Of a stretch of DNA of 64,000 nucleotides, positions 36,049-37,464 are shown in pieces (position 1 is the stretch's first letter; each line of letters begins with the position of its first letter). A program made the translations under genes and the position numbers. This stretch comes from Escherichia phage phiWec177. The notes below the pieces were generated by a model. The model made no database searches. It saw only the letters and a list, made by a program, of their open reading frames with translations, and was not told the DNA's origin. The DNA lies in sequence record LC739532.1; one strand, given 5' to 3'.

Positions 36049-37464
36049 ATGAGCGAATTATTTAAACATGCGCACCTTCATGTAGGTCGAACTGAAAATG
36101 GTGCTGTAAACCATACTTCATCAATGTCTGCTCTTGTAGACTTTTACAAAGCTGCTGGTTCGAGCCGTAGCAATGTAGAAATCTTACCAGACCTGTTCTA
36201 CAAAGCTTTGCGTGAGGATGTTGATGTTGCAGTTCGTATTTTACTGCATATGCGAGATGTACGAGAAGGTATGGGTGAGCGTAAAGCCTTCAGAACTGTT
36301 TTGCTTCAAGCAATTGAAGATAAAGCTCTAGAGCCTACACAGGTTCTTCGCATTATGGATAAGATTGCAGAACTTGGTCGTTTTGATGACTTCAAAATCT
36401 TCGTGGGTACTCGTTTCGAGACAGATGCCTTCAAACATTTAGAAGCAGCATTACTAGACCCTGCAACAGCAGGTTTGGCGGCTAAGTGGCTACCACGAGT
36501 CAAACCACGTCATAAGCAGTTTGTAAAACGTTTCTGCAAGTTTGCCAACTTGAGTGAGAAAGAGTACCGCACACTGTTGTCTGCACTATCTGATACAGTT
36601 GAGCAAAAAATCTCTGCTAATGAGTTTGGTAAGATTGACTACAGTAAGATTCCTTCTCTTGCTGCTGCACGTTACCAAAAGCTGTTTAACCGTAAAGATG
36701 GAGAACGTTACAAAGCTTACATCGAGTCCTTATCAAAAGGTGAGACTAAGATTAACGCTGGTGCTGTTTACCCATACGATGTGATTAAATCTGTCAAGCA
36801 TGGTAATGCAGATGTTGCTAATGAGCAGTGGAAAGCACTACCAAACTGGATGGCAGAAGGTGAAAACATCTTGTGTATGTCTGATGTGTCAAGTTCAATG
36901 TCTTGGGTGAATTTTGGCTCCATTACTGCTCTGGATATTGGTGTATCACTTGCCTTGTATGTAGCAGAACGCAATACAGGTTGCTTTAAGAATGAGTTGA
37001 TGGTTTATTCAACAAACCCTCACTTCATCGAACTGAGTGGTGATTTACGAAACCGTCATCGTCAGGTGATGCAACACGTTGAATATGGCTCAACTAACTT
37101 ACAAGCAGCTTTTGACCGCATTCTTGAGACAGGCAAAAGAAACAACTTGACTCAGAAAGATATGCCAAGTAAGCTTATCATCTTCTCCGATATGGAGTTC
37201 AATCAGGTTGATGGGACTAATGGTCGTACAAACTTTGAAGCAATTCAGAGTAAGTACAAAAAAGCTGGATACGAAATGCCACAACTGGTATTCTGGTACT
37301 TAGCAAACCGTAATGGTACTTGCGAAGTGTCTGTTAAGGATAACGGTGTAGCAATGGTATCTGGTTTCTCTCCAGCCACTTTAAAAGCTTTGCTTGGTGG
37401 TGAGAAGTTTGACCCAATCAGCGTAATGCTCAAAGCAGTAATGATTGACCGTTATATCTGGTAA
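36049..37464 (+). CDS. vWA-domain protein, possibly Ro60/TROVE-like
   Basis: 471 aa; MIDAS-like DVSSSMS motif in C-terminal third; N-terminal helical region; Ro60 assignment is from recollection of domain architecture only. Confidence 0.4.
   Translation: MSELFKHAHLHVGRTENGAVNHTSSMSALVDFYKAAGSSRSNVEILPDLFYKALREDVDVAVRILLHMRDVREGMGERKAFRTVLLQAIEDKALEPTQVLRIMDKIAELGRFDDFKIFVGTRFETDAFKHLEAALLDPATAGLAAKWLPRVKPRHKQFVKRFCKFANLSEKEYRTLLSALSDTVEQKISANEFGKIDYSKIPSLAAARYQKLFNRKDGERYKAYIESLSKGETKINAGAVYPYDVIKSVKHGNADVANEQWKALPNWMAEGENILCMSDVSSSMSWVNFGSITALDIGVSLALYVAERNTGCFKNELMVYSTNPHFIELSGDLRNRHRQVMQHVEYGSTNLQAAFDRILETGKRNNLTQKDMPSKLIIFSDMEFNQVDGTNGRTNFEAIQSKYKKAGYEMPQLVFWYLANRNGTCEVSVKDNGVAMVSGFSPATLKALLGGEKFDPISVMLKAVMIDRYIW

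Follow-up and report, generated by a model that had tools for sequence, protein, structure and literature searches.

A stretch of 64,000 nucleotides from Escherichia phage phiWec177 (LC739532.1), called the window in what follows, carries at positions 36,049–37,464 (+ strand) a gene for a 471-residue protein with a predicted Ro60-like fold and, in the tRNA cluster downstream of it, four members of a conserved family of small structured RNAs which accompanies genes of this type, the DUF2828/DUF7788 family, in phages and bacteria. It appears fairly probable that a cytoplasmic RNA-binding protein built like Ro60 and these small phage RNAs form a ribonucleoprotein; by analogy with Ro60 and its Y RNAs, the structured RNAs beside the gene are probably the partner RNAs of the protein. 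Ro60 and the Y RNAs form a system of RNA surveillance that has long been studied but is still poorly understood; it is known chiefly from human autoimmunity and thought to be present in only about 5% of bacterial genomes.

The window genome is a Felixounavirus, and the region is 100% identical to that of Escherichia phage phiWec172. A conclusion at the level of the protein is already in the literature, whereas the partner RNA family and its generality appear to be new.

The RNA family beside DUF2828 genes

The four elements of the window are encoded in spacers of the tRNA cluster, on the strand of the gene; scores refer to the covariance model R1 described below.

37,797–37,861 (+): short element 1, between tRNA-Glu and tRNA-Met; stem AGACCAA/TTGGTCT, ACAGCAA, 3′ G; 60.9 bits, seed member
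37,956–38,020 (+): short element 2, between tRNA-Met and tRNA-Asn; stem AGACCGT/ACGGTCT, ACAGCAA, 3′ G; 61.5 bits, seed member
38,799–38,872 (+): short element 3, after tRNA-Asp; stem AGACCAA/TTGGTCT, TCAGCAA, 3′ G; 53.6 bits, seed member
38,886–39,016 (+): long element; 8-bp closing stem AGACCGTT/AACGGTCT, ACAGCAA, T-arm GAAGGTTCGATTCCTTC, 7-bp hairpin, D-arm-like hairpin GGTGTAATGGTAGCAC, A-rich linker, 3′ G

All share one frame, consisting of a variable closing stem, 0–3 nt, the motif ACAGCAA (sometimes TCAGCAA), an interior of variable sequence whose 3′ part is rich in A, and finally the 3′ arm and a G. Between the stems of elements 1 and 2 the differences are compensatory (AA/TT in the former, GT/AC in the latter). 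Taken without its stem, the 7-mer ACAGCAA shows weak enrichment in the window (24 occurrences vs 14.5 expected), and the signal resides in stem context and position. The long element adopts a minimum-free-energy fold of −32.3 kcal/mol with exactly the listed helices, aligns module by module with the long forms of five other phage lineages, and is kept in 7/7 Felixounavirus loci. The scores of elements 1–3 are high by construction, as these are seed members, and the support for the family comes from unseen loci; no further match to R1 was found in the 64-kb window.

A 76-residue open reading frame (ORF) on the minus strand (38,882–39,112) overlaps structured RNA elements encoded on the opposite strand, as do two small coding sequences, bas63_0137 and bas63_0138 (32,748–32,900 and 32,912–33,022, both −), of Escherichia phage JohannRWettstein (Bas63), a sister Felixounavirus. 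All three are probably spurious gene calls. Within their tRNA regions, Felixounaviruses and other therapeutic phages have 'empty' spacers and small, probably spurious ORFs of this kind, which the RNA family explains.

The genomic context was examined for 13 distant homologues (27–47% identity), which together with the window represent 14 phage lineages. A Python scan of both strands for a stem of at least 6 bp with [AT]CAGCAA placed such elements next to the gene, and on its strand, in 12 of the 14 lineages, with shuffled sequences giving 0.2–1.1 per locus. R1 was built from a seed of 12 copies from seven lineages, in which every copy keeps the seven stem pairs, and each pair shows changes in either partner; since the copies had been chosen for having a stem, this count alone is circular, and R1 was therefore run on loci it had not seen. 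In 75 unseen distant viral loci (743 kb, both strands) it returned 51 matches at E ≤ 1, distributed over 37 loci, every one on the gene strand and 44 within 500 nt of the gene (binomial P ≈ 2e-50 for position and 4e-16 for strand); 21 lie upstream and 30 downstream of it. In 80 loci from bacterial genomes 98 matches were obtained in 56 loci; none lay on the opposite strand or farther than 2 kb from the gene, 65 were within 500 nt (P ≈ 3e-54) and 93/98 upstream. Altogether, the unseen DUF2828 loci gave 149 matches, in 93 of 155 loci. R1 also recovered two Klebsiella copies that had been left out of the seed and matched two lineages in which the crude scan had found none. By contrast with the DUF2828 loci, 80 genuine TROVE-Ro60 loci (839 kb) and the 49.6-kb locus of phage Bxz1 contained no match to R1; the TROVE loci are GC-rich, yet a GC-rich mycobacteriophage DUF2828 locus does carry the RNA.

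Among 66 distinct matches the stem is approximately 100% paired over seven pairs, with AU, UA, GC and CG all used at the middle positions, and covariation amounts to 0.93, compared with 0.24 in shuffles and 0.07–0.15 in slid controls, for an alignment fitted to the model. For the long form, a Python descriptor found 31 instances on the gene strand as against none on the opposite one, although 2–3 descriptor hits with 6-bp stems merely enclose a neighbouring tRNA and are to be discounted. Independent minimum-free-energy folding gives the three-hairpin layout in most long forms, about 15 other loci share the permuted layout, and the T-arm holds an invariant GGTTCGANTCC with covarying stem pairs. 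MAFFT with RNAalifold lost the register of the 3′ halves and recovered the T-arm only; the long forms were therefore judged by the descriptor and by their folds.

A second loop motif, GCTAAT (or GTTAAT), occurs about 20–30 nt past ACAGCAA in short elements of four loci (L006, L007, L009 and L014) and in long forms of two (L003 and L007), and may pair partly with the AGC of the ACAGCAA motif. In one further locus (L047, 4734–4833) a closing stem with TCAGCAA encloses a complete, non-permuted tRNA-Thr (ARAGORN, 4753–4824), which may represent a stage intermediate between tRNA and Y-like long form.

Transfer RNAs are frequent neighbours, being present within 5 kb and on the same strand in 9 of the 13 distant loci, and in 10 of the 14 lineages when the window is included; in several of these loci they were unannotated and came to light with ARAGORN and Rfam. 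In a further 60 unseen viral loci, 21 have a tRNA or transfer-messenger RNA (tmRNA) within 5 kb, and every tRNA or tmRNA up to 5 kb from a DUF2828 gene shares its strand without exception (loci L003–L015 and L022–L081). Adjacency to tRNAs as the primary association was rejected, given the 21/60 count and the RNA elements in many tRNA-free loci. Found on either side of the gene and where there are no tRNAs, the RNAs thus have the character of independent genes, whose link is to the protein rather than to tRNAs.

Other RNAs were encountered in these surroundings. In Listeria phage LMSP-25 (L008) a ROOL RNA (3431–3982; 88.5 bits, gathering threshold 99.1) and a drum RNA (944–1042; 50.2 bits, above gathering) sit in the tRNA cluster upstream of the DUF2828 gene, with RtcB, an RNA ligase and an HD phosphohydrolase encoded within 5 kb downstream. 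Enterococcus phage ZJGS4 (L013) holds in its tRNA cluster an unannotated tmRNA (1250–1600; 145 bits) with the tag peptide AKNEELLAVA, and loci L039 and L040 likewise have tmRNAs near the gene.

With respect to known Y RNAs, Rfam gave no Y_RNA or YrlA match in the window, YrlA being absent at E ≤ 1 in 12 kb. Scans of the 13 distant loci in gathering mode returned tRNAs and a tmRNA only. As a positive control, a YrlA candidate upstream of the true Ro60 gene of Bxz1 was seen in E-value mode only (32.5 bits); gathering mode would thus miss a phage YrlA, and the 13 loci were rescanned in E-value mode. Pairs of YrlA matches then emerged beside the DUF2828 gene, and on its strand, in a Klebsiella phage (36.4 and 34.3 bits) and an Enterococcus phage (47.8 and 35.8 bits). 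On the Enterococcus copies the fit of the YrlA model to T-arm, variable hairpin and D-arm is near perfect, while the closing helix with its CGAA motif is unmatched and ACAGCAA lies just outside the match. These Klebsiella and Enterococcus long forms thus resemble Rfam YrlA (RF02553) in the T-arm, hairpin and D-arm, and differ from it in the closing helix and CGAA motif, at 34–48 bits as against a gathering threshold of 69 bits, which the long element of the window does not reach either. The long element does have the permuted tRNA-like module (T-arm, hairpin, D-arm) within a 5′/3′ stem, as in YrlA. No Rfam 15 family besides YrlA touches elements of this kind in the scanned loci, and a literature search found no link between YrlA-like RNAs and DUF2828 proteins. 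A conserved family of structured RNAs, similar in layout to Y RNAs, lies within a few kb of the gene and on the same strand, but its members in the window belong to no Y RNA family known so far.

A comparison is offered by the true-Ro60 locus of Bxz1. Its long RNA reads GGGGAGGCAG-GCCGAGAG...[tRNA-like module]...CTGCCTCCCC and its short RNA GGAGACGGAG-GCCGAAGG...CTCCGTCTC, a layout which matches that of the DUF2828 loci, with GCCGAGAG and GCCGAAGG replacing ACAGCAA. Each protein family therefore has long and short RNAs of the same architecture, which differ in the motif at the side of the stem.

The protein, Ro60 and gp130 of Bas63

The gene and the landmarks of its product are as follows.

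36,049–37,464 (+): gene of the 471-residue Ro60-like protein; ATG-start ORF; DUF2828 and DUF7788; phrog_850; orthologue of Bas63 gp130
36,049–36,843 (+): N-terminal all-helical domain, residues 1–265; predicted structural counterpart of the HEAT-like ring of Ro60
36,868–37,413 (+): C-terminal vWA domain (DUF7788), residues 274–455; Pfam, and homology to the Ro60 vWA domain by hhalign
36,883–36,897 (+): DxSxS of the MIDAS (an adhesion site dependent on metal ions), D279-S281-S283; T349 at 37,093–37,095, D381 at 37,189–37,191

The protein matches Pfam PF11443 (DUF2828; 1.5e-29, 103.5 bits, cut-off 29) and PF25043 (DUF7788; 1.5e-43, 149 bits, cut-off 27.1) as well as the PHROGs profile phrog_850, labelled 'RNA-binding protein' (2e-183, 611 bits, covering positions 1–471 of 476); both Pfam models and the full-length profile thus place it in the DUF2828/DUF7788 family. 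At E < 1e-5 there are 2537 homologues, every one with the same two Pfam domains. The family occurs in 709 phage records, with hosts that include Escherichia, Salmonella, Vibrio, Campylobacter, Mycobacterium, Listeria, Staphylococcus, Enterococcus and Bacillus, under depositor names such as hypothetical, vWFA protein, DUF2828 protein, RNA-binding protein and 'Ro-like RNA binding protein'; bacterial genome assemblies contribute at least 453 loci. So large and conserved a family makes 36,049–37,464 a real gene rather than a chance frame. The initial annotation, made from the letters of the DNA, had described a 471-residue protein with a helical N-terminal region and a MIDAS-like motif DVSSSMS, possibly of the Ro60/TROVE type. 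Its coordinates were exact; the motif comprises residues 279–285 and belongs to a complete MIDAS (DxSxS...T...D), whose residues D279, S281, S283, T349 and D381 are invariant among 51 aligned homologues, a constancy shared by several basic residues in the helical domain; and the predicted secondary structure is indeed helical up to about residue 263 and alpha/beta thereafter.

The proposed kinship with Ro60 held in part. Structure prediction and comparison with Ro60 yielded a helical HEAT-like ring closed by a vWA domain, the fold of Ro60, and the MIDAS typical of that family is present. In hhalign, the family aligned with the TROVE/Ro60 family over the vWA domain only (residues 235–441 on Ro60 314–532, 193 columns, probability 90%, E 1.7e-6), with DVSGSM on DVSGSM and the MIDAS T and D aligned too. 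Membership in TROVE, on the other hand, did not survive: a profile search led to DUF2828/DUF7788 instead, and Pfam gave no match to TROVE (PF05731) or vWA_Ro60 (PF25045) even at E ≤ 10. This negative result is meaningful because the same two models recognise gp220 of Bxz1, a genuine phage Ro60 (TROVE 9e-50, vWA_Ro60 4e-54). Searches of PDB sequences with phmmer and with the family profile found no Ro60, and the N-terminal domain gave no alignment in hhalign, either with a single Ro60 or with a 29-sequence TROVE alignment. The results support the view that the protein has a Ro60-like fold, as modelled, within a separate sequence family (DUF2828/DUF7788) and not within TROVE.

Compared with Ro60/Rsr and the YrlA/YrlB RNAs of bacteria and cluster C mycobacteriophages (Chen et al. 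2014, PMC4201824), the DUF2828 system has in common a helical ring with a vWA/MIDAS domain, and long and short RNAs within a few kb on the same strand, in which a closing stem is followed by a conserved motif. It differs in that the window protein has no TROVE or vWA_Ro60 match, measures 471 rather than 530–560 residues, and is accompanied by ACAGCAA instead of GNCGAAN0-1G. Likewise, phiRo60 of Thermus phage phiLo with Yrl1/Yrl2 (PMC12135203; PDB 9KOP, 9L5Y) differs as a TROVE-domain deposit with CGAA-motif RNAs and 14–16% identity to the window protein.

The window protein is identical in 458/471 positions (97%, no gaps) to gp130 of Bas63, the same gene with the same neighbours and the same length of 471 residues. 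The authors of the PhageMaP preprint (PMC11482910) reported that deletion of gp130 results in tiny plaques on cells with the defence system Ppl, an ATPase with a PHP domain, that the defect can be complemented, and that T7 is rescued on Ppl cells by gp130, whether plasmid-borne or carried in the T7 genome. They noted a 'high structural similarity to Ro60' and a position directly 5′ of tRNAs, and speculated that some of the tRNA genes are Y RNAs; DNA degradation by Ppl was proposed, with no mechanism at the RNA level. A literature search on the mechanism of Ppl gave nothing beyond this preprint. The Ro60 hypothesis of the initial annotation was hence essentially published, since the similarity has been reported for the orthologue; the work on gp130 had no RNA partner, whereas here the tRNAs are ordinary and the candidates are the four spacer-encoded elements. 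Judging from the literature on the 97%-identical gp130, the window protein would act in counter-defence against Ppl. As to a role as virion component, gp130 is not mentioned in the cryo-electron microscopy paper on Bas63, which is absence of evidence only. The cluster L mycobacteriophage LeBron has the 'Ro-like RNA-binding protein' gp53 (472 residues), which proved moderately toxic when overexpressed alone in M. smegmatis (PMC13148394).

Proposed ribonucleoprotein and its alternatives

In the proposed mechanism, the partners of the protein in the window would be the three hairpins of about 65 nt and the RNA of about 130 nt with its tRNA-like module, 0.3–1.5 kb downstream on the same strand and inside the tRNA operon. 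They would be co-transcribed with the tRNAs from promoter-like sites at 37,483 and 37,574 and probably freed by RNase P and tRNA 3′ processing, as by-products. The protein may recognise the closing stem with the invariant ACAGCAA and the 3′ G, and stem plus ACAGCAA would then be the counterpart of the stem plus GNCGAANG site read by canonical Ro60 on YrlA/YrlB. Once bound, the RNAs might control access to the protein or link it with enzymes of host RNA metabolism such as PNPase, as has been demonstrated for bacterial Rsr and for phiRo60 of the Thermus phage (PMC12135203). Ro60 itself takes up Y RNA at its outer surface and the 3′ ends of misfolded RNA in a central cavity. The ribonucleoprotein could in this way shield or remodel RNA during infection.

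Several observations weigh against this reading. The N-terminal domain shows no sequence or profile similarity to TROVE (Pfam, PDB profile search, hhalign), so that a shared ancestry of the ring, which is a predicted one, is not established. The YrlA model misses the long element of the window even at E ≤ 10 in a 281-nt search, and this element is therefore not a member of Rfam YrlA; GNCGAAN0-1G is absent, with ACAGCAA or TCAGCAA after the 5′ arm in all copies. The folding energy of the long element is not exceptional (z −1.9), the covariation counts derive from copies selected or aligned by their stem, and the E-values are rough owing to a shortened calibration. About 40% of the unseen loci have no short-form match, which may reflect limited sensitivity (default filters, short contigs) or real absence. 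Finally, gp130 alone restores growth on Ppl in T7, which lacks the Y-like RNAs (PMC11482910). Since T7 has none of them, they are not needed for the anti-Ppl effect; the RNAs must then have a regulatory or some other function, unless their place is taken by an RNA of the host.

This last experiment is the chief argument for a stand-alone protein inhibitor, which would neutralise Ppl, and perhaps other host factors, by protein contact via the vWA/MIDAS face, the RNAs being unrelated. The rescue of T7 on Ppl cells by gp130 from a plasmid or the T7 genome fits this explanation (PMC11482910), as do the complete invariant MIDAS, a classic site for protein ligands, and the closest structural matches of the vWA domain taken alone, which are protein-binding MIDAS domains, e.g., midasin. 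It is nevertheless considered unlikely, as it leaves unexplained why an RNA family occurs on the gene strand in 93/155 unseen loci and never with TROVE Ro60, and why a full Ro60-like ring with invariant basic residues would be kept; moreover, a host RNA could have stood in for the Y-like RNAs in the T7 experiment.

Lower still must be rated the possibility that the elements are cis-acting DNA or RNA signals, be it for RNA processing, for termination or attenuation within the tRNA operon, or as a 5′-UTR (untranslated region) regulator of the gene. The preponderance of upstream positions in bacteria (93/98) would suit such a regulator, and the inter-tRNA spacers of the window are where processing signals are expected. 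Viral matches, however, flank the gene both upstream (21) and downstream (30), many element-bearing loci have no tRNA at all, and in the window promoters (consensus matches) and tRNAs part the elements from the gene. Arrays of 2–5 copies with differing stems, and copies that hold a whole tRNA-like module matched by the YrlA model, are not readily reconciled with a cis signal either, and the elements lack the T-run of intrinsic terminators. A pair of the toxin-antidote kind, in which an RNA-binding protein harmful alone is restrained by the adjacent RNA array, as with the repeats of type III toxin-antitoxin systems, is very improbable in spite of the moderate toxicity of LeBron gp53 overexpressed alone in M. 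smegmatis (PMC13148394) and the tandem arrays of RNA copies beside the gene, because Bas63 gp130 alone in E. coli improved plaquing and did not kill (PMC11482910), the RNA copies do not repeat one another exactly, Pfam shows no nuclease-like domain in the protein, and gp53 is known by its label, the DUF2828 type being established for close cluster L relatives.

Returning to the ribonucleoprotein of a Ro60-like protein and its RNAs, we lean, if only a little beyond even chances, towards a more general view: DUF2828/DUF7788 proteins and RNAs with a closing stem and ACAGCAA would make up a second widespread lineage of the Ro60/Y-RNA type with a recognition code of its own, present in hundreds of phages, whose hosts are Gram-negative, Gram-positive and actinobacterial, and also at no fewer than 453 bacterial genome loci. 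In tRNA-rich phages the RNAs would ride in the tRNA operon and be released by tRNA processing, and the system would act in the conflict between phage and host over RNA, with the effect against Ppl as its first known phenotype. If this is true, the TROVE annotation greatly understates how common such systems are in phages and bacteria, ACAGCAA and GNCGAANG offer a natural comparison of two codes of protein-RNA recognition, and Bas63 or T7 on E. coli with Ppl becomes a genetically tractable model with a clear phenotype for a Ro60-like protein. Furthermore, RNA components have been identified that may be of consequence for the transfer of gp130 to engineered phages.

tRNA cluster and flanking signals

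Downstream and upstream of the gene the following features were noted.

37,630–43,229 (+): tRNA cluster; 24 tRNAs by ARAGORN plus one at 37,714–37,785 by Rfam
35,980–36,009 (+): sigma-70-like promoter TTGACA-18-TAAAGT; consensus match only, 10/12 positions; 40 nt 5′ of the ORF
37,475–37,511 (+): 12-bp hairpin directly 3′ of the stop codon; overlaps promoter-like TTGACA-17-TAATAT at 37,483–37,511
37,574–37,603 (+): promoter-like TTGACA-18-TAAAGT with TG; consensus match only; 27 nt 5′ of tRNA-Pro

The first tRNA (Pro, 37,630) begins 165 nt past the stop codon, and all 24 ARAGORN tRNAs are on the + strand. The additional tRNA at 37,714–37,785 (+), missed by ARAGORN, scores 53.7 bits in Rfam; at this position, Bas63 and other relatives have an annotated tRNA-Glu. 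About 27 tRNAs had been announced directly 3′ of the gene; ARAGORN and Rfam bear out 25 solid ones, and about 27 if two weak matches to the tRNA-Sec model are counted. The latter (39,648–39,727 and 39,876–39,950, both +; 23 bits, E 0.7–0.85) fall in a 569-nt gap of the cluster and may be degenerate tRNAs; in Bas63, a tRNA-Arg is annotated between tRNA-Ile and tRNA-Ser, near the corresponding place. The suggestion from the PhageMaP work that the tRNAs themselves are the Y RNAs found no support, in view of their normal Rfam scores (39–60 bits) and the lack of any Y_RNA or YrlA match in the window.

Between tRNA-Tyr and tRNA-Asp, an ORF at 38,135–38,656 (+) encodes an HNH endonuclease (Pfam HNH, E 1.9e-4). 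In Bas63 these two tRNAs are 5 nt apart and no ORF intervenes, so that the ORF looks like a homing-endonuclease insertion. Upstream, a 123-residue protein with a strongly basic N-terminus is encoded at 35,596–35,967 (+) and belongs to DUF5681 (Pfam 5.8e-14); in Felixounaviruses, the DUF5681 gene stands before the Ro60-like gene.

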